64,000 nt of DNA, from the NCBI GenBank assembly GCA_963819815.1, contig CAWFXL010000001.1, forward strand, positions 1-64,000, read 5' to 3'. Each line of letters begins with the position of its first letter. The stretch's first letter is position 1. Below the pieces are notes generated by a model, which was given only the letters and a program-made list of their open reading frames with translations, was not told the DNA's origin and made no database searches. Position numbers and translations under genes: made by a program. Origin of the DNA: an uncultured bacterium. Its GTDB lineage: Bacteria > Babelota > Babeliae > Babelales > Babelaceae. Shown here piece by piece: positions 22,134 to 58,552 of this stretch.

Positions 22134-24145
22134 TTACTGACGGTTGTCGGGCTGCTGCCCGTCATCGATGATGTGCGGCGTGATCAGGATGAGGAGATCG
22201 CGCTTCGTCTCCGTCCGATTGGTCACGCCAAAGAGTCGGCCGATGATCGGGAGATCGACGAGTACGGGGATACCCGACTTGCTGATGCTCACCGTGGTCT
22301 GGGTCAAACCACCCATGACCGTCGTCTCGCCGTCAGCGACGAGCACTTCGTTGTCGACCTTCTGCGTCGGAAAGACGGCGCCGACGTCGTTCGCTTGGAA
22401 CTGCACGTCGGAGTTCTCGACGTGGACCTTCATCTGCATCTGACGATTCGCCGTGATCTGCGGCGTCACGGTGAGGATGACGCCCGTCTGCTGCATCGTC
22501 GACGGTGGCGCGCGGCGCGTTGCTCGTCGTTGCCGGTCGACGATCCTGCGTCGATGACGCGGATCGGCACCTGCGTGCCGGCCGTCAGGTTCGCCGTGCG
22601 ATTGTTCAACACGCTCATGCTCGGCTCGGCCTGAATGTCGAGCAGGGTATTCGTCTGCAGCGCTTCGAGGAACGTGGTGAAGTCGTAGTTCCCCATCGCC
22701 GTCGAGTAGACGAGCTGCAACGCGGCGCCCGGAACGCGGGCCGAGGCGTTGGCGATCGCCGAGACGGCGTTGCCGCCGAGCAGAATCTGTCCAGCGTCGG
22801 TCAGCGGCTTGCCGGCCGAGTCGAGACGCGGAACGATGTCGTTGAAGAACTGTGACTTCGAACCGATGTCGTAGCGGAGGCCGAGACCCTCGAGGGTCGA
22901 ACGATCGACGAGGATGATCTTGGCCTTGAGGTTGACCTGTGGCTGGCGGAGATCGAGGCTCTTCGCGTACTCGACGAGCTCGCCCAGCGCCTGCGGGATG
23001 TCGGTGATGCTGATCGAATTCGTGATCGTGTCGGCCGTGACCGTGCCGCGCGTCGGGCAGGCGAAGCTCTGAATCGAGCCAGGCGCCTGCGGGTTCGCCG
23101 ACTGGGCAGCCGCCGCCGCGCCCACCGCGGCGCAGGTACGCGTGAGGCGCGCAGCAACCATTTCCTTCACGCCGGCCGCACGTGAGTAGTTGAGGCGCAC
23201 GGTGCGGTTTGCCAGCGGAATGGTCGCCTGGCGCGCCGCGATCGCTTCATATGTGTCGATGACGATGACGCCGTCCGGGTTGACCGAGACGTCGTAGCCG
23301 TTGGCATTCATGATCTCTTTCAGCGCCACGTCCCACGGAAGGTCGATGATGCTCGCCGTCACTTTGCCGGTGACGTTCTTCGACGGGAGGATGGTGCGGC
23401 CGGTGAAGGCGCCGAACATCGCCAGCACGTCGGCGATCGAGGCGTCTTCCCAGTTGTTCGTGATGTGTGCTTCCTGGCGCTGCTGGCGAATCTGCGTCGC
23501 CGTGCGCGTGTCGTGCGATGCGAACGCGAGCTCGCGACGCGGCGTCGAGTCGATCACGATCGTCGGCGCTGGCGTTTCCTTCTGCACCGGGATCGGAACG
23601 ACCACTTCCTTCACTGCCGGCGCGGACGGCGCCACACTCGGCTCGCTGGCGACTCGCTTCGGCGCCGAGACCTCGCGCACCGTGCTCGTCGTGCTCGCCG
23701 AGCCGACCTGCCACGGCTCGAACTTGTCGGCCGACGCGTCGACGCTGATTTTCAGCTCGCCGTTGTCGTTCGACACCGTATAGGCATGCGGCGCGTCGAG
23801 CGTGAACACGACGCGGACGATCGTCTTCGTGAACTGTGAGTAGCGGATGCGCGTGATACCGCCGCGCGCAACGCCATCGTACGCGTCGCCGTCGGGCAGA
23901 CCAAGCGTGGCGCCGGCGACATCGACGCACGATCTTGTCGGGCTTCACGAGCGTGAAGTGCTTGAACGTGATCGAGCCATCGACGCGAACGACGACGTCA
24001 GCCCGTCCAGTCCGCGGCACGCACGCTCAGCGAGACTGACGGTCGCGTCATTGAAGGTCGGAGTTGCCGGTGCGGCAGCGGAGCGACCTCCGATCGCGCC
24101 GAACGCAGCAAGCATCGCCGAGGCGAGCGTCCGGATTGGAATCAT
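22134..24145 (-). CDS. pilQ: Type IV pilus secretin with AMIN domain; frameshifted
   Basis: PWDVALKEI, LDLRQPQVNLKAKI, TGVILTVTPQI, VADGETTVMGGL, GIPVLVDLPIIGRLF and LLILITPHI. Confidence 0.92.
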
Positions 24146-24807
24146 TTTCCCCTCGCTTTGGTGGTGTCGCGCAGAACCAGAGAGTCCTGTCGCGTCGTGC
24201 CGAATTCATCGATCGTGAAAACGACGGTGGTGTAGCGGATGTTCGAAACCCGCATGCGCCCGAGCGTGGACCCCGTCGTCACACGGTACTGAGCGTTGGT
24301 GCCCACATCGCGAAGCGTCGCAACCGAGTGACGCCCCGAGTGGTCGTACAACACGCCGGTCAAGCGAAGGTCGCTGATGGCCGGGCGCAGTTCATTCGTC
24401 GTGAGCAGAGAGTTGAACGGATCGCGCCGTCCGTCGGCGCCATATTCGAACGACTCGCGGTAGATCGTCGGCGGCGGGCTGGCGGTGTCCGGCGCCGGCG
24501 CGGCAGCCACCGCTTTGCCGCTCTTGTCAGCGGCGTGGGCGGGGGCACCCTTCGTGGTCGACGCCACCTTCATGTTCTTGGCGGGCGTCGGTGCGGCCGG
24601 CGTCACGGTCTTCGTCGGAGCAGGCGTCGTCGCGGCCGGAGCGGCCTTTGCCACGACACCTTCAGGATGCTGCTCGGCTTCGGTGTGCGCGTTGGTCGCC
24701 GCCACTGCTTTCTGCGTCGCCTTGCGCGCGTTCGCGAGCGGATCCTGCGCGCCGGACGTACGAGAGACGACGACGAGCGCCGCGCTGAGAATGAACGCGC
24801 GCATCAC
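24142..24807 (-). CDS. pilP: PilP-like pilus assembly protein
   Basis: Position between pilO and pilQ; signal peptide; Y..GRRDPF..L and LRLTGVL motifs. Confidence 0.65.
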   Translation of the reverse strand: MMRAFILSAALVVVSRTSGAQDPLANARKATQKAVAATNAHTEAEQHPEGVVAKAAPAATTPAPTKTVTPAAPTPAKNMKVASTTKGAPAHAADKSGKAVAAAPAPDTASPPPTIYRESFEYGADGRRDPFNSLLTTNELRPAISDLRLTGVLYDHSGRHSVATLRDVGTNAQYRVTTGSTLGRMRVSNIRYTTVVFTIDEFGTTRQDSLVLRDTTKARGK

Positions 24808-25421
24808 GGTGCACCTACCTTCGATGACGACGGCTGCTTCACGGAGGTGTGAGCGACATAGGTCTGGATGCCGAATTTCGCATCGAGGAACTGCTCGTTC
24901 TTTTTCGCCCTGCGCTCACCCTGTCGCGAGCTCGCGGTCAGCGTGAGGTTGATCGGCGAGACGATGCGCGGCATCGAACCGACATTGCCGAGGAACTCGG
25001 CCACCTGATGCCATGGGCCGGTCACGCCAATCTTGTAGCGATAGGTGTCGAACTGATCCCCGTTGACGACGCCGTCCGGCTGCACATCGGCCAGCTCGAG
25101 GCCCGCGCGACGCGCGGCCGTGGAGACCGACTCGAGCAGCGCGGGCACTTCGTTCTCCGTGGGCACGAGGCGACGCAGCACCTCGAGCTCGCGGCCGAAG
25201 GCATCGGCTTCCGTCTTCATCTTGGTCGCGCTGCCGCGGGCGACTTCGATCTTGCTGAGTTTGTTCAGCGAGTCGAGCGTATCGAGTCGGACCTCGATCG
25301 CCTGGAGGTCGTTGTTCTTCGGCGACCACACGAGCTGCTGGTACGCGGCGCCGAGGCCAACGGCCAACAGACCGAGGATGAGCAGCTTCTGATCGCGGGG
25401 GTTCTGTGGAAGGAGCGCCAT
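24804..25421 (-). CDS. pilO: Type IV pilus assembly protein PilO
   Basis: Single TM, coiled coil, LVPTENEVPALL, VTGPWHQVAEFL..VGSMPRIV. Confidence 0.88.
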   Translation of the reverse strand: MALLPQNPRDQKLLILGLLAVGLGAAYQQLVWSPKNNDLQAIEVRLDTLDSLNKLSKIEVARGSATKMKTEADAFGRELEVLRRLVPTENEVPALLESVSTAARRAGLELADVQPDGVVNGDQFDTYRYKIGVTGPWHQVAEFLGNVGSMPRIVSPINLTLTASSRQGERRAKKNEQFLDAKFGIQTYVAHTSVKQPSSSKVGAP

Positions 25422-25423
25422 GG

Positions 25424-26182
25424 TTACCTCACCGACAGCGTGAGCGGCACGCGATGCAGCATCAGCGAATCCGGGCGGGTATACCCGATCGTGAGCTGGA
25501 ACTGCGCCACTTCTTTGCCCTGCTCCACCGCGAGCTCCGACTTGTCGAGCTGCACGTTGGAGAGGTATGGGGACGCTTCGAGGTCCTTCATGAAGCGCGT
25601 GACCGCCTGGATGTCGACCGTGCGACCTGAGATGCGGATCGAGATGTTGTCCTTCGGAATGGCCGTGTCCATGCGCCGCGGTACCTTGCGCTTCTTGGCG
25701 GCGGCCGACGTGTCTTCGGCAGCGCCCTTCGGCGTCACGACGACGTTGTTGCTGCCCTGCGGCGTGCCCGTGAACGACACGGCGGTGAGCCACGTGTACT
25801 GCGGCAGCGCGCGGCTGATCTCGTCGAGGACGTGCGGCCAGACGTAGCGGTCTTCGTCGATGCTGCGGATGACGTTGACCTGGCGGAGGAGCGTGTCGCG
25901 CGTGGCTTCGGCGCGGTAGCGATCCTTGAGGAAGTTCGCATAGCGCGTCGAGTCGCGGAGCGCGACTTCATGACGTTCGTTCAGCGTCGCTTCGCGTGTG
26001 CCCTGGAGCGTGTACAGGACGCCGACACCGACGGCGCTCACGATGAGCGCGGCGACGGAGCCGATCAGGAACTTGTCGCGAAGACGACCGGAGAAGCCTG
26101 CGGCGAAGGCGCCGAAGTCTACCGTTTTGGCGCGCGCGGCCTTCTTGCGTCCAGCGCCGGGGAGAAGATTGATTTCGATCAT
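25424..26182 (-). CDS. pilN: Type IV pilus assembly protein PilN
   Basis: MIEINLLP PilM-binding motif, TM segment, LDEISRALPQYTWLT. Confidence 0.92.
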   Translation of the reverse strand: MIEINLLPGAGRKKAARAKTVDFGAFAAGFSGRLRDKFLIGSVAALIVSAVGVGVLYTLQGTREATLNERHEVALRDSTRYANFLKDRYRAEATRDTLLRQVNVIRSIDEDRYVWPHVLDEISRALPQYTWLTAVSFTGTPQGSNNVVVTPKGAAEDTSAAAKKRKVPRRMDTAIPKDNISIRISGRTVDIQAVTRFMKDLEASPYLSNVQLDKSELAVEQGKEVAQFQLTIGYTRPDSLMLHRVPLTLSVR

Positions 26183-26223
26183 GGGCGTGGCCTCGGGGGC
26201 TTAGCTGCGGCCGTTCTGGGAGA

Positions 26224-27264
26224 TCATGCGACCTCCCGAAGCGCCAGACCGATGGGGAGCATCAGCAGCGGCGCAATCTCATCGGTGACGAGCGATGCGA
26301 GCGCACCGTCGCGGACCTTCAGGTTCGCGAGCGGGTTTGCCTGACGCACAGTGAGGCGCAGGCGCGCGGCGAGCATGTCATTGAGGCCCGGAATGCGTGA
26401 GCCACCACCGCAGGTATAGAGCGATCGCATGGCGCCGGCGCGCGAATTCTGCGCGAGATAGGCGGCGGCACGCTCGACACCGACAGCGATTTCTTCGCCG
26501 CGGCTTTCGATGACCGAGTCGAGGTGCGGCGAGCGATCGTACCCCTGCAAGAGCTGCTGCGCAGCTTCGGCGCTCAATCCGCGCTCGCGCTGCAGGTCTT
26601 CGCGAAAGCGGCGCGTACCCACGGTGAGATCACGCGTGAGGAGCGGAACGCCTTCATCGAGAATGTTGATGTTGGTGACGTCGTGGCCGATGTTGAGCAG
26701 GCCGACGACGCCGTTCATCGCGTCGGGGTGATTCACTTCGAACGCGTTGTGGAGCGCGAACGCTTCGACGTCGACGACAGCGGCGTCGAGTCCGGCGTCC
26801 GTACAGACACGAACCCGCGACTCGATCAGCTCGCGCTTGGCGGCGACGAGCAGCACGCTCATCTCGACGCCATCGGCATCGGGATCGAGAATCTGAAAGT
26901 CCAGCTCCACCGACTCCATGTCGAACGGCACATGCTGCTCGGCTTCCCAACGCATGAGCTCGCGCGCCTGCTGCTCTTTCACGCGCTCGATGGAGATTTT
27001 CTTGATGATGACGTCGCGACCGCCGACGGCGGTGACGACCGCCTTGCTGGTGATCTGCGCGCTGGCCAGCGCGGTCTGGATCGCATCGGCCACAATGCCG
27101 GGGTCCATGACTTCGCCCTCGACGATCGCGTCCGCGAGCAGCGGGGTCACCGTCACGCGAACCAACTCGGGTTCGCGCTTCGAATGGTCGATCACCGCGA
27201 CCTTGATCAATCCCGAACCGATGTCGAGACCGACGGTTGTTTTCTTCCGACCAAACAAAGCCAT
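26224..27264 (-). CDS. pilM: Type IV pilus assembly protein PilM (actin-like)
   Basis: VGLDIGSGLIK, WEAEQHVPF, LDFQIL, VLLVAAK, CGGGSRIPGL and IGLALR. Confidence 0.95.
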   Translation of the reverse strand: MALFGRKKTTVGLDIGSGLIKVAVIDHSKREPELVRVTVTPLLADAIVEGEVMDPGIVADAIQTALASAQITSKAVVTAVGGRDVIIKKISIERVKEQQARELMRWEAEQHVPFDMESVELDFQILDPDADGVEMSVLLVAAKRELIESRVRVCTDAGLDAAVVDVEAFALHNAFEVNHPDAMNGVVGLLNIGHDVTNINILDEGVPLLTRDLTVGTRRFREDLQRERGLSAEAAQQLLQGYDRSPHLDSVIESRGEEIAVGVERAAAYLAQNSRAGAMRSLYTCGGGSRIPGLNDMLAARLRLTVRQANPLANLKVRDGALASLVTDEIAPLLMLPIGLALREVA

Positions 27265-27466
27265 GGTAGTGCTCAGTGAGCGAGTGGACGGCTTGCTGGG
27301 AGACAGCAATCGCGAAATGCGATGACGGTAGGAACTACTTTCGTGCAATTCGACCGTGTCGTCTGTCGACGCGTCTTCGCGTCAACAAGCTGTCATTCCA
27401 CCCGAACACGACCGACAAACCAGCAGGTAACAGCAGAGTACGCTTACGTGATTGCCATCACAGGAT

Positions 27467-28426
27467 TTAGAAGATCTCTGTCCAACTTCGCTGTTGCACG
27501 ACGCGCAATTGTGAGATGCGTCGCAGTGCACGAGCGACAACACACGGCGAGAACTTCATCACACCGCCGCCAATATCGATTGCGAATTGTTCAATACTCG
27601 GCGTCGCAAACGACAGCAGTGCACCTGTGACCGACAACTCATTCGTGCTCACAACGATCGGTCCGCGAGCGATGATGATGCCGTTGAGCGTGAACGGTCC
27701 GACAATCGAAACACTTCCGTCCGCGATCATAACACCCTGGAACGAACTGTTGCTGATGACAGTATCGGCACGAACATGAATTGCTCCACTCGGGCTTTCG
27801 ACGACCTGCCGTTGCCACGTCGCTTGCGCGTAGTGCGCTGGATCACCAGCGCGCGCGTCGACCGCGCTGATCACGCTGTCCGCGGTCGTCACTGCCCCTC
27901 CGGGCGCCACCGTGACGGCGGCAAATGATGCCGCGGCGCAATCCGCGTCGGTCGAGGTGTCGGCGGTGACCGCCAGGCCCCCGCGCAGTCGAACCGCACC
28001 GCGCGCCATCAACGGAGACATCGGCAGGGGCACGAGAGGTCGCCAGCGTGCGACGAGATTGACGCGCCGACGTCCGACGTCGCGCCCCGACAGCTCCGCG
28101 TCGGCGACCAGCCAGAGCACATTGTCCGGCAGCCGCGTGACCGCGACGGTCGTGGCGATTGCCAGCGGTGAGCCCGCGTTCACTGCGAACGTGCTTGCGC
28201 GACCGAGCGGGAGATCAGCAAGCGCCGTTGACGTATCCGACAGAATCGTGTACACCGCAAAGTCGGCACTCGCCATCAGCGCCGCGTCCGATCGACTCGA
28301 TTCCGCCGAGCGTTGCGCCAACGTCGATGTCGATACCACGCCGCCGATGAGCAGGGCGATGAGCGCGACGATCACGATGGCCGCGAACAACGCGACGCCG
28401 CGCCGGCTCCTTCGAGGCGCGATCAT
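27467..28426 (-). CDS. PilX-like minor pilin
   Basis: RRG|VALFAAIVIVALIALL class III-like signal lacking Glu5; C-terminal SWTEIF. Confidence 0.7.
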   Translation of the reverse strand: MIAPRRSRRGVALFAAIVIVALIALLIGGVVSTSTLAQRSAESSRSDAALMASADFAVYTILSDTSTALADLPLGRASTFAVNAGSPLAIATTVAVTRLPDNVLWLVADAELSGRDVGRRRVNLVARWRPLVPLPMSPLMARGAVRLRGGLAVTADTSTDADCAAASFAAVTVAPGGAVTTADSVISAVDARAGDPAHYAQATWQRQVVESPSGAIHVRADTVISNSSFQGVMIADGSVSIVGPFTLNGIIIARGPIVVSTNELSVTGALLSFATPSIEQFAIDIGGGVMKFSPCVVARALRRISQLRVVQQRSWTEIF

Positions 28427-29313
28427 CGCCGATTGTGAAGCAAGATCCACTGCCCGGCGGAATCGACGCGCTTGGTGCCGCTGATGGAGAGCGCTCTCGA
28501 AACGCTGCGCGTCTGTCCACGGACATCGATGCGCACGAGGGCGATCGCTCTCGTGTCCACAACCGGTGGTGGAATCGTTGCCCCGATCGAATCGACATAC
28601 CGGAACCCGAGGCCGCGCGACGGCGGCGAGAGAAACGGACCGCTCACCGGTTGCACGGTGTTGAAGCGCGCAGTCACGTTGTTCCAGTCCCGCTGGCCGA
28701 GATACCACTGGCCATCGGATCCGCGGTACAGGCTATAGCGCATTGGACGCGTGATTCGAATCGGCGCGCCGAGCGGCCCGCTTGCCGTGAGCCCAGTGAG
28801 TGTGAGTGCGACGCGCGCCGTGGTGCGCGCGGCCGTACTCAGACGAGGACCGCGGCTCGCACAATCGCCCGGCGGCGCCGACGTCACCCCTGCGATCGGC
28901 AAGGGGCGCCATTCCTCAGCGGAGTCCGTCGCGGCGAGCACCCATGCGGTGTCCCCCGCCTCGATCGGCGATAGTACGCCGCCGTAGACGACTGCTCCAT
29001 CGCTCGGCGGAGAAAGCACGAGTCGACCGCCGCTCGTGTCGCAGCCGACCGACGTGGCGATCGTGGCGCGGATCTCGAACGACGTGTCTCGCGCTTCGCG
29101 AATGTCACCCGCAACGCTGGAGACTGCGCCCAGGTCGATTGGTAGAACCGAGAGCGCATCGCCGAGTTGCGCAGCGAGCGCGGTGTTCTCCTGGAGATCG
29201 CCAACGACTCGCTGCTGCCGTGCACTGATCGCCGCGACGAGCGCGAGTGCGATCCCAGCGATCACCACGGTGACCATGAGCTCGAGCAGCGTCACCGCTC
29301 GCCGCGCTAACAC
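28423..29313 (-). CDS. PilW-like minor pilin
   Basis: RRA|VTLLELMVTVVI prepilin motif. Confidence 0.75.
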   Translation of the reverse strand: MLARRAVTLLELMVTVVIAGIALALVAAISARQQRVVGDLQENTALAAQLGDALSVLPIDLGAVSSVAGDIREARDTSFEIRATIATSVGCDTSGGRLVLSPPSDGAVVYGGVLSPIEAGDTAWVLAATDSAEEWRPLPIAGVTSAPPGDCASRGPRLSTAARTTARVALTLTGLTASGPLGAPIRITRPMRYSLYRGSDGQWYLGQRDWNNVTARFNTVQPVSGPFLSPPSRGLGFRYVDSIGATIPPPVVDTRAIALVRIDVRGQTRSVSRALSISGTKRVDSAGQWILLHNRR

Positions 29314-29651
29314 GGGAGCCGCGTGTGAAGTGCGACGGCTTTGTCGACGCCGGCAACTGTGAACGTGACGCTGTCGAATATCTCGCGCACGCCGTTGACC
29401 GGCGACATCGCTCCCCAGAATTCGCGAATGCCTCCCGCGCTCGTCATCGCGCCGGTCGTCGCGGCACAAGCGCCCGCGCCAAGCAGTTGCAGACGGTCGA
29501 TGGCGAGACGAGCGGCAATCGTGCGTACGCGGACTTCTGTCGTCCGGCGCACCAACGTCGACCCGGCGGCAACGAGCGCGAGCAGCGCGACGTCGACGAG
29601 AACGACGGCGATCAGGACTTCGATGAGGGTGAACCCGCGGCGCCGACGCAT
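29307..29651 (-). CDS. PilV-like minor pilin
   Basis: RRG|FTLIEVLIAVVL prepilin motif, 114 aa. Confidence 0.8.
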   Translation of the reverse strand: MRRRRGFTLIEVLIAVVLVDVALLALVAAGSTLVRRTTEVRVRTIAARLAIDRLQLLGAGACAATTGAMTSAGGIREFWGAMSPVNGVREIFDSVTFTVAGVDKAVALHTRLPC

Positions 29652-29745
29652 GGCGCCAACCTACCGACGACGCCCGCTAGACTCGCATCAATCGAGCGCG
29701 TGCCGTGTCGCGCATTGGCAATCTCTGATCCCCCGAACGCAGCAA

Positions 29746-29777
29746 ACCCCCGGCGACGCTTTCGCGTGACCGGGGGC
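29746..29777 (-). terminator. Hairpin downstream of pilA
   Basis: CCCCCGG-cgacgc-tttc-gcgtga-CCGGGGG stem; followed by TTTG on the minus strand. Confidence 0.55.
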
Positions 29778-29846
29778 TTGGGACCAAGCACCTTTGCTCG
29801 GGGCTGGGCGCCGGGCCGAATGCCCGGTGCCAGTGTTCATCCAACT

Positions 29847-30234
29847 TTACTTACAAGCCGGCTCGCCTTCGGCCGCGGTCGGAATCGTCGGGTTGGTCGT
29901 GTTGATGCAGATACCGCAGGGCTGCGTCGCCGGCAGCTGCGAGTGCGTCACCGTCGCCGTCCAGAGGCCCGCGCCGGTCACGATCGCCGGCGAGCTGACG
30001 CCCGGTCGAGCTCTGGAACTTCAGGTCGGTGATCGTGGCCGTGTACTTCGAGCTGTCGGCGAAGAACGCCTCTTCAGCGGTGACCAGGTTGCGGAGGTCC
30101 GACTTCATCGCCGTGACGTACGCCTTCGACTTCGTGTTCGCGAACTTCGGAATCGCGATCGCGGCCAAGATGCCGATGATGACGACGACGATCAGAAGTT
30201 CGATGAGGGTAAAGCCCTTGCGCATTTTGAGCAT
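29847..30234 (-). CDS. pilA: Type IVa major pilin; one indel near 30,001
   Basis: KG|FTLIELLIVVVIIGILAAIAIPKF; removing one G restores ...SSTGVSSPAIVTGAGLWTATVTHSQLPATQPCGICINTTNPTIPTAAEGEPACK*. Confidence 0.9.
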
Positions 30235-30296
30235 GTCGATGGTTCCCGAGAAGGAGGTGAGGGGAAGCGTCCTGCTACTGCCCGGCGGGCATTATG

Positions 30297-30310
30297 GCAA
30301 CGTGCGGACC
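30297..30310 (-). promoter_or_regulatory. Putative sigma-54 (-24/-12) promoter of pilA
   Basis: Minus strand GG-TCCGCACGTT-GC (GG-N10-GC with TTGC) about 60 bp upstream of pilA; a PilR-type activator is encoded nearby. Confidence 0.6.
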
Positions 30311-30326
30311 CAACCGCTCCATCGAT

Positions 30327-30355
30327 GGCAAATCGCTGTATTACAACGACTTGCC
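30327..30355. promoter_or_regulatory. Imperfect palindrome upstream of the pilA promoter (IHF-like or activator site)
   Basis: GGCAAATCGCTGTA-T-TACAACGACTTGCC: 14-bp arms with 2 mismatches. Confidence 0.45.
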
Positions 30356-30361
30356 AACATT

Positions 30362-32124
30362 CTACGGCGGTGGATCGCCCGCCTTGCCTACTGCCTTTTG
30401 CACGGTATCTGGCAGTTTGCTAGGCGGGGCCCCGACTTCCGTCACCGGCCTATTCCCGGTGGAATCTCGATCACGCGTGCTCGCCATCGCCGCGACGTCG
30501 TAGGCGATGATCTGGTGCAGCAACGAAAACAGACCGCCGGCTCGAACCGCCTCGAGCGCCATTTCCTTCGACTCGCCGAATCGCCCTTGGTTCATCAAGC
30601 ACCAGGCGTATTCTGTGCGGCCGTCCAAGCGGAGTCGGCTCGATCTCGTGCGACCAACGATAGAGGGGAATCGCCGCGCGCACATGCCGCCTTCGCGGTA
30701 CGCCTCCGCCAGGTTGAAGGCCAGAAACGGGTCGTACGGGAAAAGGCGCATCCCTTCTCGGAGCTCCGATTCGCCAAGGCGTTCGCGTTGGTGCTGCACG
30801 TCCCACGCGCCGAGCATGAAGTACGCGCGATAGGACCGGGGCGAGTCGGCGACCGACTGGCGAAAGAGCGTTTCGTTGTCGCGCCACACGCGGGTCCGGT
30901 TCCGCTGCGGATCCCGGCGAGATCGAGTAGCGCCGCGCACGTCACCGGGGCGGCGAACGTCCACGCGCGGATCCGCGCGGGCGTGACGCTCAGCCCCTCG
31001 GCGATCGCGACGGCGAGCGCACCGACGAAGAACATCGCGCCGACGCTGGCGAGAAACATCGTGCGCTCGGCGACGACGATGCCCGCCGGGATCAGGAAAT
31101 TGCTCGACGGCAAGCAGCGCGAGGCACGCGAAGCGCGATGCCGAAGACATCACCGGTTGGCGTCGCCGCAACAGACATGCCGCCGCCACGATCGCGACAG
31201 GAGCAGGAAGCCCGGGAGTCTGGACGAAGCTCAGACCCTGCGCGATGTCGACGTCGGGCGGACCGTAGTCCGACGCCAGTCGCGCGGGCCAGAAGAACAG
31301 CCGCAGCCATTCGGGGACGACGCCCACCGCCGTCAGCACGCGATCACCGGGGTGATGCGGAGGACGGCGAACGGCGTGAACGGGGCGAATCCGCCGATCG
31401 AGTGGTCGGCGAGGACGATGCCGCGCGCGGCGAGGAATCCGAGGGCGACGGCGAGCATCCCGAGGTAGAACGGCCGCAGCATCCGCGCGCGGTCGCGCGG
31501 GAGCGCCGCGTCGGAGATGACGGTGAGCTCGGCGGCGACGAGAATCGCCGGGAGCACGATCCCGTGCTCCTTGGCGAAACAAGCCACGGCATAGAGCAGC
31601 AGAATCGCAAACCGCCGTCGGCACACGCAGCGTTCCCTGCATCCGGTCGCGAAGATAGAGGGCCGTGGCGGCCAGCACCGCGACAGCGACCGACAGCTCC
31701 GACTGGCCGACGACGTTGGCGACCGCTTCGACGTGCACGGGGTGTACCGCGAACAGCGCGGCGGCGACCCACGCGGCCCAAAGCGGCAAGCAACCGGCGA
31801 GCGACGAGGAACACGAGCCACGCCGCCAACGCGTAGAGACCGATGTTCACGGCGTGGAAGACCATCGGGATTCAGATGGCCGAGCACCGCACTCGACTCG
31901 AAAGCGAGAATGGTGAGCGGACGATAACCGTCGCCGCCGCCGGCACTTCGGCCAGTACGACAGGCGGAACACGTGCCACCAGCCGTGAAGGTCTTCGTCA
32001 CCGGATTCTGCTCGACGATGTACGCGTCGTCGTAGGTGAACCGTTGACGATGCCGATCGCCGACGACGCACAGCGCGAGCGAGCACGACCGACGGCGCCG
32101 CCGCGCGGCGCAGCGACCGCTCAT
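30362..32124 (-). CDS. TMTC-like GT-C membrane glycosyltransferase with C-terminal TPR; frameshifted
   Basis: [72 protein letters not shown], then TPR-like helices. Confidence 0.82.
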
Positions 32125-32880
32125 GAGAAGAGATTGAACTTGGTGATGTGCCAGAACGCCGCGATGCCGTCCTTCCATCCGATCTTCTTGCCTTCGGCGT
32201 AGGTGCGGCCCGAATAGGAGATCGGCACCTCGAAGATGCGCGCACCGGCGCGCGCGAGCCGCGCGGTGATCTCGGGCTCGAAGCCGAACCGGTTCGGCGT
32301 AGGAGCGGCGCAGCGAGCGCGCGATGTCGCCGCGCATCGCCTTGTAGCAGGTCTCCATGTCGGTGAGGTTGAGGTTCGTCAGCATGTTGCTGTACGTCGT
32401 GAGGCAGCGGTTGCCCACCGAGTGCCAGAAGTACAGCACGCGGTGCGGCCCGCCGAGGAAGCGCGAGCCGAAGCACGGCGTCGGCGCGCCCGTCGAGGAT
32501 CGGCTCGAGCAGCGCCGGGCCAGTCGTGCCGGGTCGTACTCGAGGTCGGCGTCCTGCACGATCACGACGTTGCCCGGTGCTCGCGGCGAGAGCGCCTGCG
32601 GATCGCCGCGCCCTTGCCGCGGTTTTCCTGGATGGCGGATCGAGCTGGTCGATGCGTCCCTGCGCGAGGAGCCGCTCGAGGATCTCGCTGCGTGCCGTCG
32701 GTCGAGTGGTCGTCGACGCAGATGATCTCCTTCGCGCATCGGCGTCGCGTGCACCTGATCGACGATGAGATCGATCGTGTCGCGCTCGTTGTAGACGGGC
32801 ACGAGCACCGAGAGCGTGACGACGGCGCGGTCGAGGGCGTGCGCGCGCGACGGTTGGGCGAGCGCGGGCCGATCGCTCAC
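32121..32880 (-). CDS. GT2 glycosyltransferase, DPM1/polyprenol-phosphate sugar synthase-like; frameshifted
   Basis: [44 protein letters not shown] and [22 protein letters not shown]. Confidence 0.88.
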
Positions 32881-34258
32881 GCTTCGACTCCGTAGCGCGA
32901 CGAGCTTGCGATACAGCGTCGACGGATCGATGCCGAGCACCTCGGCGGCGCGCGACTTGTTGCCGCTCTCGCTCTGCAGCACCCACATGATGTACGCGCG
33001 CTCGACCACCTCGAGCGTCGGGTTTGGCGGCGTGCGCGTCGACACGAGCGGCTCGGCGCGTCGCTCGGTGACGCGCTCCGGGAGCGCGCTGACGTCGAAT
33101 CTCGTCGCCTCGGCGTCAGGATCACCGCGCGCTCGAGCGCGTTCTCCAGCTCGCGCACGTTGCCGGGCCAGTCGTATACTCGATCATCACGTCGAGCGCC
33201 TCGTCGGTGAGGTGCTTCGGCTCGGCTTCCGCGCCGTCGGCGATGCGATGGAGGAAATGCTCGACGAGCAGCGGGATGTCGTCGCGCGCTGGCGCAGCGG
33301 CGGCAGGTGCAGCGCGATGACGTTCAGCCGGTAGAAGAGATCGCTGCGGAAGTTGCCGACGCGAATCTCCTCGTCGAGATCGCGGTTCGTCGCGGCGACG
33401 ACGCGCGTGTCGACCGGGAATGGCATCCGTCGCGCCGACGGGAATCACTTCGCGCTGCTGCAGCACGCGCAGCAGCTTCACCTGCGTCGCCGGCGTGGTC
33501 TCGCCGATTTCGTCGAGGAAGAACGTGCCCTTGGTCGCCGCGCCGAAGAGACCGATCTTGTCCTTGATGGCGCCGGTGAACGATCCCTTCACGTGACCGA
33601 ACAGTTCGCTCTCGAGCAGGCTCTCGGGAAGCGCGCCGCAGTTGATCGAGAGAAACGGCCCTTCGGTGCGCGTCGACAGCTCGTGGATGTAGCGGGCGAT
33701 GACTTCCTTGCCGGTTCCCGACTCGCCCTGAATGAGCACGGTGGAATCGGTCGGCGCCACGGTCTCGACGAGGCGCAGCACGTCGAGCCACGTCTTGCTC
33801 GTGCCGACGGCCGACGCGATCGCCCTGCCGCTCGTGGCGTCGAATCTCCTGCTTGAGCGACTTGTTCTCGACGCGAAGCTTCCGATGCTCGGCGGCGCGC
33901 CGCAGGATCGCGACCAGCTCGTCGTTGCGGAACGGCTTCTGGATGTAGTAGAACGCGCCCTCGTTCACCGCCTGCATCGCCGACTGCAGCGTGGCCTGCG
34001 CGGTCATGAGGATGACCGGCACGTCGGGATCGCTCTGCCGCGCGGCCGCGAGGATCTCGACGCCGCTCACGTTCGGCATGCGGATGTCGGTGAGCACGAT
34101 GTCCGGCGACAGCTCGCCGATGCGCTCGAGGCCCGCCTTGCCGCCGTGCGCGATGATGCGGGGCGAATCCCTCGTTGCGCAGCAGGATGTTGAGCGAGTC
34201 GAGAATGCCCGTTTCGTCGTCGACGACGAGCACGCTCGGCTTGGATGCAATCGGTCAC
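32877..34258 (-). CDS. pilR: Sigma-54-dependent response regulator (PilR/NtrC type); frameshifted
   Basis: Receiver [73 protein letters not shown]. Confidence 0.85.
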
Positions 34259-36031
34259 GAGAGACTTCCTGGCCGCTGGCGGCCAATTGGGCGACGCGGT
34301 GTGCCGGCTGTGGTCGCCAGGCTGCCGCATCGCAACCGGTTTGGCGGAGGGAGAATCACGGTGAAGCGCGTGCCCGCGTGCTGCTATCGACGAACACGAG
34401 TCCGCGGTGCGCCTCGATGGCGCGGTGCACGACGGCGAGACCGAGGCCCGCTGCCGTTCGCTTTCGTGGTGAAGAACGGATCGAACATGCGGTCGCGGAT
34501 TTCGGCGGGGATGCCCGGGCCCGCGTCGGTGACGCGCGAATCGACACCGTGTCGCCTTCGAGGCGCATGCCCGACGGAATCTGGTCGCCGCCGACCACGC
34601 ACGACTTCGATGCGCACCTCGCCGCCGGTCGGGCGACGCCTGCACCGCGTTGAGCGCGAGGTTGAAGATCGCGCGGTGCAGCAGATCCTCGTCGCCTTCG
34701 ACGCGAATCGGCCGTCGCCCTCATCGACCTCACGCGACACTTCGACTGTCGGCGGCGATCGGGATGCGCGCCGGCGAGGCTTGCCGCGCCGCGCGCGACG
34801 TCGCGCCGAGGTCGACCGTCTCCGTGCGCGCCACGCGCACGCGCGCGAAGTCGAGGAACTCGGAGAGGAGTCGCGACAGACGATCGGACTCGCGCATCAC
34901 GAGGACCGCTGAGCGTCTTGTGATCGTCGGAGATCGCGGGCATCCGCGAGATCTGCTCGACGGCGCTGCGAATCGACGCGAGCGGATTCTTGATTTCGTG
35001 CGCCAGCGACGCGCTCAGCTCCGCGATGCCCTCGAGGCGCTCGGCGCGCAGCCGCAGGACTTCGAGGCGCTTCTGGTCCGAGATGTCCTGGAAGATCGCC
35101 GTCGCGGTTCGCCCGCCTCCGTCGTCATCGTGCTCGGTGTAGGTCGTGGTGACGCCGACCGACAGGCGACGCGTGGCGTTGGTGACGAACAGCTCTCCGC
35201 GCGTCGTGCGAATCTTCGACTCGGCGGCCTGGCGAATGGCGTGCGACAGCTCTGGGGCAACGCGTCCGATCACGTCGAGAATCGGCTCGCCGATGCGATC
35301 GGCGAGCTCGAGACCGAGCAGTTGCTCGGACGTCGGATTGGCGTAGAGCAGTCGACCGGCGACATCCACGGTGACGACGCCGCTGCGGATGTTGCGCAGA
35401 ATGTCTTCCGCCTGAAGTCGCGTGCGCTGGAGGGCGGCGACGAGTTGGTCGGTGCCCTCCCCCGTCGCGCGCAGCTCGGCGCTGAGGTAGCGAATGACGA
35501 GCGCGACGATCGCGATGATCGTGATCTGTAGCCAGACCGTCGGATCGGGAAGCCAGACGGCGCGCGGCGTCGTCGGTGGCCGCAGAAAGACCACCACTTC
35601 GACGAAATAGAAGACCAGTCCCACGGCCGCCACGAGCAAGCCGCCACTCGCGGGAACGAGCAGCGACGACGTCGCGATGACCAGGATGTAGAGCGCCGAG
35701 AACGGCGAGCCGACACCGTTCGTGACATGGACGACCGCGGTGACGACCGCGAGGTCGAAGATCGCCTGCGCGTACAGAAAGCTCTGGCTGAGCGGCTTTT
35801 TGTATATTTCCGAGTGGACCGCCGACGCCACCGTCACACGGTCGACAGCGCGAAGACGAGCGACGGCGACGAGCGTGCGATCGGCCGTCGATCTCTGACC
35901 AGCGGGAGATCGCGGCGATGAAGATCGCGACTCGCGAGACACATTCGTCCGATGTAGACCCATCGGATGAGTCGTCGCGGGTCGAGAATTAGCTTGAGCG
36001 CCGGCTGAGTTTGGCGGGACGCGAGTCGCAC
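34255..36031 (-). CDS. pilS: Membrane sensor histidine kinase with PAS domain (PilS type); frameshifted
   Basis: PilS-like TM region ([23 protein letters not shown]), PAS, H-box [27 protein letters not shown] and GLGLA. Confidence 0.82.
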
Positions 36032-51550: not shown

Positions 51551-52131
51551 ATGCCGCTGACGATCGCTGAGCTCGAGACGCCAATTCCCGTCGTCGACCT
51601 GGACCGCCTCGCTCGTAATCTCGACCGGGCAGCCGAGTACGCAAAGGCGCACGGCCTGGGGCTCCGGCCACATATCAAAACCCACAAGTCACCCCGCATC
51701 GCGGGTGAGCAGCTGACCCGCGGCGCCGTGGGCGTAACGTGCGCGACCCCGTACGAGGCCGAGGTCATGAGCGAGGTGTGCAGCGACATTCTCGTTGCCT
51801 ACCCACCGGTCGGCCCGAAGCGCGCCGCGCGACTGGCCACGCTCGCGAGGAAGGTGCGACTCACCGTCGCGCTCGATTCGATTCAGGCCGTCGACGATCT
51901 GGCGCGCGCGGCGACTGAGGCCGGAAGCAAGATCGGTGTGTGCGTCGAGCTCGATCTAGGAATGCACCGCGTTGGGCTCCCGGTCGTCGACGACGCCATC
52001 GCGCTCGCGCGCGCGGTGCGTGAACGGCCGTCGCTCGAGTTTGCCGGCATCGCGTTCTATCCGGGGCACGTGCGTGAGCCAGTCGATCAGCAAACACTCA
52101 AGCTCGACCAACTCAAGACGACGATCGGCGC
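51551..52131 (+). CDS. PLP-dependent D-amino-acid enzyme (D-threonine aldolase / DSD1-like, alanine racemase fold), 3'-truncated at a junction
   Basis: LETP..VVDLD, LRPHIKTHKS, ELDLGMHRVG and YPGH. Confidence 0.85.
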
Positions 52132-54275
52132 GGTTTTAACCCTTCTTGATACTCATAGACTGCATTATTAATCATTTCACCAATATCATCACCACTGAAT
52201 CCTTCGGTTGCCGAGAGAATCTTATCGTAGAAGTCAGGTGATAGGGCATGTGGGGTACGAGAGACGACCTCAATACTATTTTGATGAAGATAATAGTTAA
52301 TAATTTTCTTCCTTTTTGCATAGTCTGGAAGAGGAATTTCAATAGTCTTACAGCGACGCATCACTGCGGGATCAATGTTTTCAGGATAGTTAGTCGTACA
52401 TATAACAAATATACGAGGATCATGTCGATACTGGTCAAGTGTGGTGATAAACGATTTAAGTGCTCTGTTATCCTCTTGGGTGCTACCATGAGGTTGTAAG
52501 CGTGAACTTGTTCCATCGATTTCATCGATGAGAATGATACAATTACCCAGTTTTAATGCTTCTGCAAAGAGGGCATCTAATTTCGCTTTACCGGAGCCTT
52601 GGTAGGCGTCCCTAAAGTCACCACCACCTGCATAGACAATTTTTCTACCAGCAGCACGTGCCATGACTTGAGCGATCGTACTCTTACCAGTACCAGGAGG
52701 ACCATAGAGGAGGAGACAATTTTTAAGTTTAGTGCCAGCTGATCGGGGAGCAGCTTCTCGTTTCATCTGCTTAATACAGATGGCTACCTCATTAGGAATC
52801 TTGCCACCAAAGAGATCCTCCAAAGAAGGAATTTCGTCGTCTCTGAGGTTCACTAATGGCGCATCATAATTCACACTATTTTTTTTAGCAGCGGCAGTGG
52901 TATCGGTACTCGCTTCCTCTTTTTCTCCCAATAAGTCTTTAATGAAATCATCTTTCTTTTTTTCAGGAGCAAGTTTTTTCGCGATTTGGAGCGCCTCTTG
53001 TACCGTATCTACAAGCGCAGTTATGGCTTCTTCATATTGGCGATCTTTATTGTGCGGATCAGTTACGGTAAACGTTACCTTATCATGCATCTTGGTAATG
53101 ACACATGAGGTCCATTGCTTTTCAAAGCTTATGAGGAAAAGCGCCTGAAATTTCTGAGGTTTTTTTTCAAGCTCAGTGCGGAGCCATGACAGTTCAAGAT
53201 TATTGGAGATACGTTCTTCAAGAGGGTGCTGACTCGTATACTCTAAGAAATGAATGTTTTCAAGGGCAACCGCTGAAAACTGATCAGGTGGATAGTGTGG
53301 AGGAATTGAATTTTTCGTGATCGCTTCTGCGAGCTCTTTTATTTCTGTGGCCGAGAGCCAGCTGCCATCGGGAAAGGATGAAGGTGAAGGACCGTAAGTT
53401 AAAGAGTAGACCCTAGTTCCGTTAACGTGCAGTTCATTGTGATTTTTTCCTTGTTTGAGCTCGCCCTCTAGAGAAGGTACAGTTGCAAGGTAGGATTCAA
53501 AGAGCTGACGTCCGAACGCAACTCCTTTTTTATTGTTTGTTTCGGCTGACTCTTGTTCGAGTGCTCTATAAAGGTCTTCAGTAGTTATGCGAAAGGTACC
53601 CCCTTTTTGAGAGTGCGCATGAGCTGCTCGCTGTGCAGCCCCAGGTATAAGACGTGCGAGATAATCTATTTCAGTGCGTTGAAGTGGTGTTCTGTCATCA
53701 TTAATAACGACTACAGCCTTTTGAGTTTGCAGAATATAAAAGTCCATCGAACTAATTTCTTTATACGGAATCGCATGAGTGCCCAATAGATGCAATAAGA
53801 ACTGATCTTCAAGATACCCTTTTAAGGTGCTTTCAAATCGATTTTGAATAATAGTTGAGCGCCATGCTGACTTTTCATGCGCAAAGAGCTGTTCAGCTAA
53901 CGAGCGATCATGCATTTTGCGTAGAAAGGCATTTTTTTCAGGTTCTTGTGCATAAGGAAGCACACTAGAGATAAGGCCATTATGGAGCGCGACATATCCT
54001 GAGCTTGCCTTAGTTTCTTCATAGCCAGAATCTTCACCACCAAAGATTGCGCTCAAATATTGAGCATAGGCGACATCTTTAATCTTTGCATGAACTGGTT
54101 CTGTAATTTCCAGAAGAGATTGTGCGGGTACTAGCTCAGGTAGGTCATTTTCATCTTCATCAAGACCCTGGTCAGATAATGCTGAGGTATGATCTAGTGT
54201 CGGATCTGGGTAAAGCGAGCCAGTAATACCTATAACTAAGAGTAAGCTAAGTAGAGATTTCTTAGGGATCATCAT
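52132..54275 (-). CDS. Signal-peptide protein with unknown N-terminal domain and C-terminal classic AAA ATPase; 3'-truncated at a junction
   Basis: Walker A GPPGTGKS, Walker B ILIDEID, SRH TTNYPENIDPAVMRR and TEGFSG. Confidence 0.88.
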
Positions 54276-54496
54276 GGGTCACCTCATGAAATTGGAGTAG
54301 GATATTTTTTATTATCAGTACTACATTCCTGTCTCTAATCATATATGATTTTATGATTTTCGGAAGTTTATTTTTTATGGATTTAAAATCAAAGTTTGAT
54401 TCATATGACTAGAAATGATTTGGATCGGAGCTAGACAAGAAGGGATGGCGTTAGCTATTTTAATTGAATCGTCATAAGGAATCCCATCTCCTCGTT

Positions 54497-56206
54497 TCAG
54501 GAGCAGGTTTTTTGATCGGCTTGCAGCGCCTCTTGTACTAAATCTACAAGCTTAGTTATGACTTCTTCATTTTGGCGATCTTTATTGAGCGGGTCAGTGA
54601 CGGTAAACGTTACCGTATCCTGCATCTTGGTGATAACACACGAGGTCCATTCCTCTCCGAAGTTTTTTATAAGTAGGAGCGCCTGAAACTTCAGAGGTTT
54701 TTTTTCAAGCTCGGTTTGGAGCCAGGATAGGGTAAGATTATTACGGAATTCTTCAAGAAAGGTCTTACTTGGATATTCTAAGCAACGAATGTTTTTAGGC
54801 AGAACCGCTGTTACTGTAGTTTTCTCCGGATATCCTAAGAATTGAATTTGTCCAAGAGTAGCCGCTATATCTACGACTGAGAGCCAGCTACCATCTTGAA
54901 AGGGTGTAGGCGAAGGACCACGGGTTAAAGAATGGACCATGGCTGAGAGCCAGCTACCATCTTGAGAGGTTGCAGGTGAAGGACCATAGGTTAAAGAATG
55001 AACCATAACTCCATTAACATACAGTTCGTTATGATTTTTTCCTTGTTTGAGCTTCCCCTCTAGGGTGGGTATCTTTGCAAGATAGGTTCCATAGAGTCTA
55101 AGTACAAACATCTCGGCCTCTTTATCGACCGGGTTGTCCGAGTTCCAAGCGGCTGGATTTTCTTTTAAAATTGCTTCATAAAGGAGTGCAAAAAAGACAT
55201 CTGGAGGAGTGATTATAAATTCTTTTTTAAAGTACTCATGGGCTGCTCGTTGTGCACACCCTGGTATAAGTTTTGTGATACACTCAATTTGAGCCCGTTG
55301 TAGAGGTGTTGCATCATCATTAATGACGACAGCACCCTTTTTTGTGCCCAGAATAAAAGGTTGCAATGCGGAATCATGAGGACCAAATTCTTCAATATGG
55401 GTTCCCGAAAGATGCAATAAGAAGTGTTCTTGAAGATACTCAGCTAAGATTCTTTCAAGTCGACTCTGCATGACAATTGAGCGCCATGAAGAATTCTCAG
55501 AAACAAAGAGCGGTGCTGCTGTTAATTGACTATGCATTGAACTAAGCAACCAACATAGCTCAGGTCCCTCAGCATAAGAAAGCATACTAGATATGATACC
55601 ATTATACAGTGCAACGTATCCTGAGTTTGCCTTAGTTTCTTCATAGCCAGAACCACCAAAAATGGCACTTACATATTGGGAATAGGCGACATCTTTAATC
55701 TTTACATGAACGGGTTCTGTGATCGCCTGTGCGGGTACTAGCTCAGGAAGATCATTTTCATCAAGAGTTTGGTCCGATAATGCTGGATTGCTTTGGATGA
55801 CTTCTTGTGTCAGCGGCAGAGGGGACAGAATTGAACCATTATTAGTTGAAATTTGATTACCTTTGGTAACTGATAACGCTGCTGCCCCTGGCAGAGTGGT
55901 CAACGCCCCCGTATTTTGCAGCGCAAGAAATGCCAGTGCTATTTTCAATCGATGTTTTCCGGCAATTTGTGCCCCTGACTTGAAGAGCTCAAAAACTACT
56001 TGCATTGCTTTGGGGCCATAGGAAAGAGCATCTAGAAGTATATCTTCGTCAAGCAGCTCTCTGTTTATAGGCTGTGAATCGGGACCGGACTCACTTTCAA
56101 GGCTGCGAGGAAGCTCAATAGAAGCTGCTGCTAGTGATGTGACAGGAGTCGCCATCACAGTAAACAGCATCCCTATCGCATACCATTCTTTCAACCGCAT
56201 TGACAT
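54497..56206 (-). CDS. Paralog of the N-terminal domain of the adjacent AAA proteins, lacking the AAA domain
   Basis: Shares DLPELVPAQ, SGYEETKA.SGYVAL.NG, DGSWLS and WTSCVITKM.D.VTFTVTDP.NKDRQ with 52,132-54,275. Confidence 0.85.
   Translation of the reverse strand: MSMRLKEWYAIGMLFTVMATPVTSLAAASIELPRSLESESGPDSQPINRELLDEDILLDALSYGPKAMQVVFELFKSGAQIAGKHRLKIALAFLALQNTGALTTLPGAAALSVTKGNQISTNNGSILSPLPLTQEVIQSNPALSDQTLDENDLPELVPAQAITEPVHVKIKDVAYSQYVSAIFGGSGYEETKANSGYVALYNGIISSMLSYAEGPELCWLLSSMHSQLTAAPLFVSENSSWRSIVMQSRLERILAEYLQEHFLLHLSGTHIEEFGPHDSALQPFILGTKKGAVVINDDATPLQRAQIECITKLIPGCAQRAAHEYFKKEFIITPPDVFFALLYEAILKENPAAWNSDNPVDKEAEMFVLRLYGTYLAKIPTLEGKLKQGKNHNELYVNGVMVHSLTYGPSPATSQDGSWLSAMVHSLTRGPSPTPFQDGSWLSVVDIAATLGQIQFLGYPEKTTVTAVLPKNIRCLEYPSKTFLEEFRNNLTLSWLQTELEKKPLKFQALLLIKNFGEEWTSCVITKMQDTVTFTVTDPLNKDRQNEEVITKLVDLVQEALQADQKTCS
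54877..55006. repeat. 66-bp in-frame tandem duplication
   Basis: MVHSLTYGPSPATSQDGSWLSA / MVHSLTRGPSPTPFQDGSWLSV. Confidence 0.9.
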
Positions 56207-56258
56207 TTTTGCTCCTCGATTTTCTACCAGCTATATTCTAGCATATTTATTTTCCAGA

Positions 56259-56375
56259 AATCATCAAGCGCTAACCTGGTTTACGAGTAATTCCAACAAA
56301 TCCCCCGTTTAAGCGAATTCGCAGATTGCACTTCGTCATAACCAGCTCCAAAGTCGTTGGCAATCCGTGGTGTAT
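56259..56375 (-). pseudogene. Degenerate copy of the SAM-binding motif region of the neighbouring methyltransferase
   Basis: PRIANDFGAGYDEVQSANSLKRG vs PGIAIDFGAGYAGVESAYLLKRG. Confidence 0.6.
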
Positions 56376-56576
56376 ATGCTGCGTATGGATATAGTGGAAT
56401 TTGTTGAATGCTGGTTATTTCTTGTACTACGGGCGTACGTGAGGTGGTTGTCCACCGAAAGTCCATAGATTCATGAATCCGAACACAGCATCAGAGATAA
56501 AGAGAAGGCTTATGTAGATCCAGAAGAGTGAGCAGGCTCCCAAAGCCTAAAGTGATAACCTTGCATCGGTAATTCC

Positions 56577-57323: not shown

Positions 57324-57374
57324 GATGCACTTGGGCCGGACCTTGACTTATCGGCATACTTAAATGGATGATTC

Positions 57375-57407
57375 TGCCGATAACATGCCGATAACATGCC
57401 AATAAAA
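57375..57407 (+). repeat. Three 11-bp direct repeats over the fic start, with an inverted copy upstream
   Basis: TGCCGATAACA TGCCGATAACA TGCCAATAAAA; TTATCGGCA at 57,348-57,356 next to TTGACT. Confidence 0.7.
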
Positions 57408-58505: not shown

Positions 58506-58552
58506 GTGTGGAGCCTACGAGATCAAGTAGGTACCAAAGATATTATTTTAAA

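Follow-up and report, generated by a model that had tools for sequence, protein, structure and literature searches.

A putative TfpW-like O-glycosylation cassette between pilR and the type IV pilin gene pilA in Gemmatimonadota

TfpW of Pseudomonas aeruginosa group IV is described as a protein of 646 amino acids (aa) with 11 predicted helices, a required DDX motif and a periplasmic tetratricopeptide repeat (TPR) region, which is encoded beside pilA and adds D-arabinofuranose to Thr and Ser residues of the pilin; homologues adjacent to pilA are reported from other Proteobacteria as well (bioRxiv 10.1101/2020.04.19.049825). The glycan attached by TfpW is described to block pilus phages (bioRxiv 10.1101/150227; PMC11841053). 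The TMTC enzymes constitute family GT105 of CAZy (PMC8476585), and full-length prokaryotic TMTC homologues were noted before (PMC7801869). Sets composed of a GT2 enzyme, a flippase and a GT-C enzyme are described as standard in bacteria, including sets that modify lipopolysaccharide (PMC11194591). Here we analyse a locus in a stretch of 64,000 nucleotides (contig CAWFXL010000001.1 of assembly GCA_963819815.1, positions 1 to 64,000; hereafter the window), in which genes encoding a GT2 glycosyltransferase and a GT-C glycosyltransferase with C-terminal TPRs (GT-C/TPR) are situated between pilR and pilA (Table 1).

This locus probably serves to O-glycosylate PilA in the periplasm, with a polyprenyl-phosphate sugar as donor and in a design similar to that of TfpW. 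Judging from 4-nt overlaps, pilS, pilR, GT2 and GT-C would be translationally coupled. The GT2 would load a monosaccharide onto undecaprenyl phosphate, a flippase would be encoded away from the locus, and the GT-C/TPR enzyme would transfer the sugar in the periplasm to Ser/Thr residues of the membrane-anchored PilA before pilus assembly. The invariant DD of the first periplasmic loop may be catalytic, KE and ER presumably hold metal and phosphate, and the TPRs would bind the substrate. Extra GT-C genes of related loci may extend or diversify the glycan. By analogy with TfpW, masking from pilus-binding phages or pilin stability is the likely benefit. A preliminary description of the window had already proposed a polyprenol-phosphate-sugar pathway that O-glycosylates the pilin; the fold, the type of the GT2 and the linkage to pilA agree with this core; the mannose and the eukaryotic style ascribed to it are not supported.

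Our comparison with TfpW (Pa5196, PA7) is based on its published description and not on its sequence. On this basis, both share the GT-C fold, a DD(X) motif in the periplasmic loop that comes first, a C-terminal periplasmic TPR region and adjacency to pilA; the number of long helices in our model is compatible with the 11 of TfpW, and a lipid-monophosphate sugar donor and Ser/Thr acceptor sites, as in TfpW, are predicted in the present case. The GT-C gene is usually located upstream of pilA in the pilSR operon, or divergently, whereas tfpW is located downstream; the donor enzyme is a GT2 of the nucleotide-sugar type, whereas TfpW depends on a pathway of phosphoribosyl pyrophosphate and DprE; and the present loci often have further GT-C genes and tandem paralogues. 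It is likely that the cassette works like TfpW, but membership in the TfpW family is unproven, with the TfpW proline motif absent. In the Atlas, Pseudomonadota TPR clusters of 634-646 aa occur at 0.86-0.87, which is a lead only toward TfpW. As TfpW itself is described as a pilA-adjacent GT-C with DDX, 11 helices and TPR (bioRxiv 10.1101/2020.04.19.049825), the term "eukaryote-style" and the contrast to TfpW in the preliminary description are not supported.

With animal TMTC1-4 and DPM1, the locus shares the combination of GT-C and TPRs and the motif order DD, YRP, FAVHP, KE, ER as given in PMC7801869. The closest relatives of the window enzyme differ by replacement of SHKS, RxD, DW and PxxP; furthermore, the TPR tail is short, DUF1736 remains below its cut-off and the proposed acceptor is a pilin rather than a cadherin. 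The pairing of a GT2 lipid-sugar synthase with a periplasmic GT-C resembles GtrABC and ArnC/ArnEF/ArnT as described in PMC11194591, but the locus contains no flippase gene, no GtrA type was found in five genomes, and the TPR tail and the linkage to pilA point to a protein acceptor.

The predicted order pilS-pilR-GT2-GT-C/TPR-pilA, with all genes on the minus strand, was confirmed, as were the overlaps of pilR and GT2 (GTGA, 32,877-32,880) and of GT2 and GT-C (ATGA, 32,121-32,124) and the gap of about 130 bp in front of pilA, the GT-C stop codon being located 127 nt before the pilA ATG. Since the locus is most likely mis-joined and its genes from pilA to pilS are frameshifted, the functional analysis was made on intact relatives.

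The 79 best-matching GT-C/TPR loci all belong to Gemmatimonadota or unnamed bacteria. For 60 of them, pilA is situated within 6 kb, and 59 contain the GT2; in ten loci the enzyme is encoded on the strand opposite to pilA at a distance of at most 1.5 kb. Most of the 19 loci without pilA within 6 kb are explained by contig ends, but some, among them L058, L064 and L070, truly stand alone. From an even draw of 121 Gemmatimonadota genomes, GT-C matches of at least 112 bits were kept (weaker matches and two unlisted ones were dropped), which gave 88 enzyme clusters in 64 genomes. Pilin matches were taken first from the best 150 of 299, among which 42 clusters were found beside pilA, and the regions of the remaining 46 clusters were then inspected: 12 contain pilA, two a cut pilin, three a pil locus without visible pilA, and 29 are located elsewhere. 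In total, 54 of 88 clusters occur beside pilA and 59 in a pil locus. Six enzyme-bearing genomes lack a pilin of this type; 56 of the 58 others keep a copy in the pil locus, and this copy stays beside pilA also after inversions. Conserved linkage to pilA, as anticipated from the gene order pilR-GT2-TMTC-pilA, is supported. A match to GT-C folds (see below) and synteny with pilA, whose absence had been named beforehand as adverse to the proposal, are both present.

In 19 pilin-bearing genomes without the enzyme, 20 regions were inspected. Seven of them have no gene or no transferase gene in the pilR-pilA slot, three have other GT-C-like genes there and three a spermidine-synthase fusion; the others are solitary pilins (4) or cut by contig ends (3). 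A quick tree of PilR from 37 loci requires at least six changes in the presence of the enzyme, three of them forced by starred branches. Judging from these sequences, the slot behaves like an accessory one. The fusion gene (L136:7727-10834, L138:7444-10494, L145:3921-7043) encodes a membrane protein of 1,000 aa on the strand opposite to pilA, with a spermidine-synthase domain (Pfam E 2.5e-13 for L136); all three genomes lack the GT-C, and this gene, too, may be pilin-modifying or related to the pilus. Additional GT-C genes without TPRs (PMT_2/GT87-like), one or two per locus, are situated between pilR and GT2 in L003 (5586-7172), L005 (5582-7201) and 40 other loci; the window and L004 are devoid of them. 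With at least one such gene in 42 of the 79 best loci and no GtrA-type flippase in five of five genomes, the "two-gene pathway" of the preliminary description is too simple. In L012/L086 (G043), GT2 and GT-C stay in a pil locus in which no pilA was seen, and pilA copies occur elsewhere in the genome. L089-L094 represent a lineage without this pilin type, with tandem arrays of distant, longer TMTC-like GT-C/TPR genes, some of which adjoin very large secreted-looking proteins.

Among 8000 candidates scored, 1094 were GT-C/TPR homologues, the best ones with a length of 585 aa; several are named "protein O-mannosyl-transferase" by the Joint Genome Institute (JGI). The structure of one relative, P0001, was modelled on 54 aligned relatives (predicted local distance difference test score 80.7). 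The model matches STT3 (Z 19.9, root-mean-square deviation (rmsd) 4.7, 348 aligned residues), Pmt (Z 18.6, rmsd 4.9, 363 residues) and ArnT (Z 17.2, rmsd 4.9, 340 residues), with an overall rmsd range of 4.2-4.9 over 328-363 residues. Its nearest folds are thus the protein-modifying STT3 and Pmt, plus ArnT. GT-C matches cover residues 1 to approximately 440 and TPR proteins match the tail, so that a multi-helix GT-C fold with a TPR tail is predicted. A hydropathy scan revealed nine segments in each of two relatives, although not the same nine, and the number of long helices in the model is compatible with 11. At E<=1, PMT_2 was detected in 40 and TPR_17 in 46 of the 54 aligned members. Foldseek with the P0001 model gave no match at E<=0.001; searching solved structures by sequence, with the 54-relative alignment and P0001 as queries, retrieved TPR proteins only; and NCBIfam holds no specific model for this protein. 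The fold lists for P0001 contain no TMTC, TMEM260 or TfpW entry, which does not exclude kinship to them.

In the window, the motifs YDD (32,034), YRPLT (31,926), [12 protein letters not shown] (31,756) and KEHG (31,572), and further along AERTMF (31,071) and WRDNETLF (30,886), are split over two reading frames. DD, YRP, KE and ER are invariant in all 54 aligned relatives, and so is YDD. Compared to the seven TMTC motifs as given in PMC7801869, SHKSYRP is replaced by GGDGYRP, RxD by QxE, DW by DY/EY and PxxP (M6) by LPSSN, and M7 (ER) ends in F or L instead of Y; Y occurs in many phylum-wide copies, and more distant Gemmatimonadota copies have RxE and sometimes DW. DUF1736 (TMTC_DUF1736) is not among the 25 families shown for the 54 members (11 further families match at most one member each) and reaches its cut-off in none of five genomes, with two weak matches in other genes. 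In the Atlas, bacterial clusters lead at 0.97-0.98; with PMT_2 clusters excluded, chordate TMTC is the nearest named cluster (0.93, 198/256 features). By strict motifs the enzyme is thus TMTC-like and not a member of TMTC (GT105). The proposed kinship to TMTC is backed by DD/YRP/KE/ER and by the Atlas. The motifs and TPRs that the preliminary description called a "TMTC signature set" are present, but SHKS, RxD, DW and PxxP of TMTC are replaced; the profile and structure searches that it suggested returned a GT-C fold (STT3, Pmt, ArnT) with TPRs and no DUF1736 above its cut-off.

Relatives of the GT2 match Pfam Glycos_transf_2 (E 5e-33). The best matches among solved structures are an archaeal dolichyl-phosphate-mannose (Dol-P-Man) synthase (1e-24), ArnC (1e-18) and the GtrB-type sll0501 (5e-17), the Dol-P-Man synthase being ahead of ArnC by only about 20 bits. 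Among 36 long homologues scanned out of 150 listed, fusions to a GtrA/DPMS domain (5), a PMT_2 domain (1) and a methyltransferase (10) were found. From its sequence, the GT2 is of the polyprenyl-phosphate glycosyltransferase group and of a generic lipid-sugar-synthase type, in agreement with the type postulated before. No NCBIfam model exceeds its cut-off; the best is the glucose-type AglJ, with 110 bits compared to a cut-off of 325. The GT2 occurs in 98 of the 121 genomes, mostly as a single copy and often outside the pil locus: 63 of 64 genomes with the GT-C/TPR enzyme contain it, compared to 35 of 57 without, related genomes not being independent and three genomes without a GT2 match being deduced from lists. 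A DPM3 search matched none of five genomes, but no control gave a match either.

A strict version of the pilin O-glycosylation reading, with a DPM1-like polyprenyl-phosphate-mannose synthase and TMTC-family O-mannosylation of pilin beta-strands in a cadherin-like manner, is possible but doubtful. It finds support in the archaeal Dol-P-Man synthase as best solved match, the chordate TMTC cluster in the Atlas, the JGI names, and a W-x-A-T-x-T/H stretch that is conserved in aligned pilins. Against this, the motifs replaced by GGDG, QxE and DY/EY are those modelled as mannose contacts in the consulted description of TMTC, DUF1736 was not detected as outlined above, the ArnC and GtrB-type matches of the GT2 are nearly as good as the Dol-P-Man synthase, and AglJ as its best NCBIfam match is of the glucose type. 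With differing sugar-contact motifs and a GT2 that passes no specific NCBIfam cut-off, the identification as a DPM synthase and the assignment of mannose are not supported.

The window pilin contains 18 Ser+Thr in 66 residues past mature residue 54 (6/15 before and 12/51 after the break), as counted before. Over the same region, the mean Ser+Thr content is 28.6% for pilins encoded next to the enzyme (41 loci) and 21.3% for those of genomes without it (11 loci, one of which is truncated upstream). This enrichment was rejected as proof of the substrate, as a phylogeny-aware test on a quick tree retained only three independent pairs at three thresholds, with a median p of 1. Thus, the argument from a Ser/Thr-rich pilin stands in so far as the content is real and the mean is higher beside the enzyme, but it is confounded by phylogeny and suggestive only.

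The GT-C gene may have a history of its own. The window is 93.5% identical to L004 in this gene (L004:8001-9755), while pilM-pilV are 66-82% identical. L003 and L004 are mostly 91-97% alike, with 86% in the GT-C gene (L003:8001-9755) and 86-88% in pilW and pilV. Informative sites of the GT-C gene group the window with L004 in 186 cases, compared to 73 for L003 with L004; every other gene tested groups L003 with L004, and the flip occurs in the GT-C gene alone. This suggests a recent exchange of the GT-C gene without pilA, which a mixed consensus could mimic.

Several of these observations weigh against glycosylation of PilA by a TfpW-like cassette. In addition to the phylogeny-aware test and the apparent exchange of the GT-C gene without its presumed substrate gene, the enzyme-bearing loci L170 (0.16) and L173 (0.17) have a low and the enzyme-free L130 (0.31) a high Ser/Thr fraction. 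The TfpW proline motif YX6PFX7P is found in none of the 54 aligned relatives, the Z-scores of the fold matches do not tell GT-Cs that modify proteins from those that modify lipids, and a GtrA-type flippase was detected in none of five close genomes, with 8 of 14 controls giving a match. Furthermore, 42 of 100 pilin-bearing genomes have no GT-C match of at least 112 bits. Because 29 of the 88 clusters are located away from pil genes, the sequence survey indicates that the enzyme family has or had other acceptors.

The latter clusters also favour an alternative that we regard as unlikely, namely a general periplasmic protein O-glycosyltransferase, or one acting on minor pilins, adhesins or PilQ, with PilA as at most one substrate. 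As most genomes have a single GT2 copy, often unlinked, it would serve a cell-wide donor pool; tandem paralogues are common, and the locus continues with minor pilins after pilA. However, a general enzyme would not need the retention of a pil-locus copy in nearly all genomes with enzyme and pilin, nor its position beside pilA after inversion.

Quite improbable is a role of the GT-C genes in the decoration of lipid or polysaccharide (lipid A, O-antigen) in the manner of ArnT or GtrABC, with a location in the pil locus for co-regulation. The fold match to ArnT, the common occurrence of lipopolysaccharide-modifying sets of GT2, flippase and GT-C as described in PMC11194591, and the match of additional TPR-less GT-C genes to PMT_2 and GT87 are in line with such a role, but it suits these extra genes better than the TPR enzyme, for which the TPR tail, the TMTC kinship and the tight adjacency to pilA fit a protein acceptor.

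Compared to the intact relative L003, the window carries 45 frameshifts, i.e., one in pilA (near 30,005), 12 in GT-C, 12 in GT2, 7 in pilR and 13 in pilS, so that no intact gene is left between pilA and pilS, both included. No frameshift occurs in pilM, N, P, V, W or X, and pilO and pilQ have one and two, respectively. No in-frame stop occurs in the genes from pilA to pilS, and the pilS-like and pilR-like proteins are 70% and 88% identical to their intact L003 counterparts. A homopolymer bias as proof of sequencing error was rejected, because only 14 of 44 single-base indels are located inside single-base runs. Nevertheless, the frameshifts are probably assembly errors and not decay. Decay to pseudogenes in this organism, or a non-catalytic pilin chaperone, would agree with the clustering of frameshifts from pilA to pilS and the low share of indels in single-base runs, but appears highly improbable in view of the missing in-frame stops, the high protein identity to intact relatives, the chimeric contig end and the invariant catalytic motifs of the family.

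Bases 1 to approximately 52,130 have a GC content of 59-67%, compared to 38-44% in the rest of the 1.6-Mb contig (1.55 Mb); the step is abrupt, and the join interrupts a gene on either side. The high-GC DNA was found in none of 40 relatives of the assembly, and due to this and the chimera these relatives were dropped as comparison set. Gemmatimonadaceae genomes are collinear with it at an identity of approximately 77-80%. Most likely, the pil locus belongs to a Gemmatimonadaceae-like organism and was mis-joined to an unrelated genome. Because 52 kb of Gemmatimonadaceae-like DNA are joined to a small genome of 42% GC, findings left of approximately 52,130 are not to be credited to the taxon of the assembly.

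Table 1. Features of the pil locus and of the join in the window
Feature	Position	Strand	Basis
pilS-like sensor kinase (ends approximate)	~34,255-36,031	-	Pfam 6TM_PilS E 6.6e-11, PAS, HisKA
pilR-like sigma54-dependent response regulator	32,877-34,258	-	Pfam Response_reg, Sigma54_activat, HTH_8
GT2, predicted polyprenyl-phosphate sugar synthase, ~250 aa, no membrane tail	32,121-32,880	-	88% to L003 protein
TMTC-like GT-C glycosyltransferase with C-terminal TPRs	30,362-32,124	-	82% to L003 protein; 585 aa in intact relatives
Predicted sigma54 (-24/-12) promoter of pilA, GG-N8-TTGC	30,297-30,310	-	Seen in the sequence itself
pilA, major type IVa pilin, Ser/Thr-rich, two C-terminal cysteines	29,847-30,234	-	Pfam N_methyl; 77% to L003 pilin; pilin alignment
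pilV/W/X-like minor pilins and pilMNOPQ, downstream of pilA	22,134-29,651	-	
Join of 65%-GC Gemmatimonadaceae-like DNA and 42%-GC genome	52,100-52,170	.	GC step; alanine-racemase-fold and AAA-ATPase genes both cut

The name pilR for the sigma54 regulator rests on gene context. Among 46 related loci whose pilin is complete, 44 show GG-N8-TTGC within 260 nt upstream of a pilA (a count without shuffle control), so that pilA probably has its own sigma54 promoter and the transferases would be read with pilSR. Just past pilA (29,741-29,780), a G+C-rich inverted repeat and then a few T's were seen by eye and form a likely terminator. A second two-component pair, consisting of a short kinase and a sigma54 regulator, is often situated between pilA and the minor pilins (L011, L019, L023, L036, L040, L045 and others). 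Rfam and tRNA scans gave no matches. In the 42%-GC part (52,113-60,874), three paralogous secreted-looking proteins are encoded, two with AAA-ATPase domains and the first cut at the join.

In the open-access literature, we found no paper on this Gemmatimonadota locus or on a GT2-fed TMTC-like pilin enzyme, and nothing that combines Gemmatimonad type IV pili, glycosylation and pilA; subscription papers and bioRxiv supplements were outside the scope. As full-length prokaryotic TMTC homologues are already in print (PMC7801869), their occurrence in bacteria is not new in itself. Because the concept is known from TfpW, the gain is one of breadth and testability and not of kind. If the cassette glycosylates PilA as proposed, more than half of the sampled pilin-bearing Gemmatimonadota would sugar-coat their type IV pili by a GT2-fed TMTC-like enzyme, TfpW-type pilin glycosylation would extend well outside Pseudomonas and use another donor pathway there, and a very large bacterial family would gain a concrete candidate substrate. 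It is tempting, but doubtful at present, to regard animal TMTCs and TfpW as branches of one ancient GT-C/TPR family. The Gemmatimonadota branch would then be a genuine TMTC of bacteria, which O-mannosylates beta-strands of the folded pilin from the polyprenyl-phosphate-mannose of the neighbouring GT2, and the slot a phylum-wide recombining anti-phage glycan cassette. If this were true, PilA would offer a small bacterial substrate on which to study how TMTCs work. The fold searches listed no solved TMTC structure, and the bacterial enzyme-substrate pair would be a tractable model for the human TMTCs.

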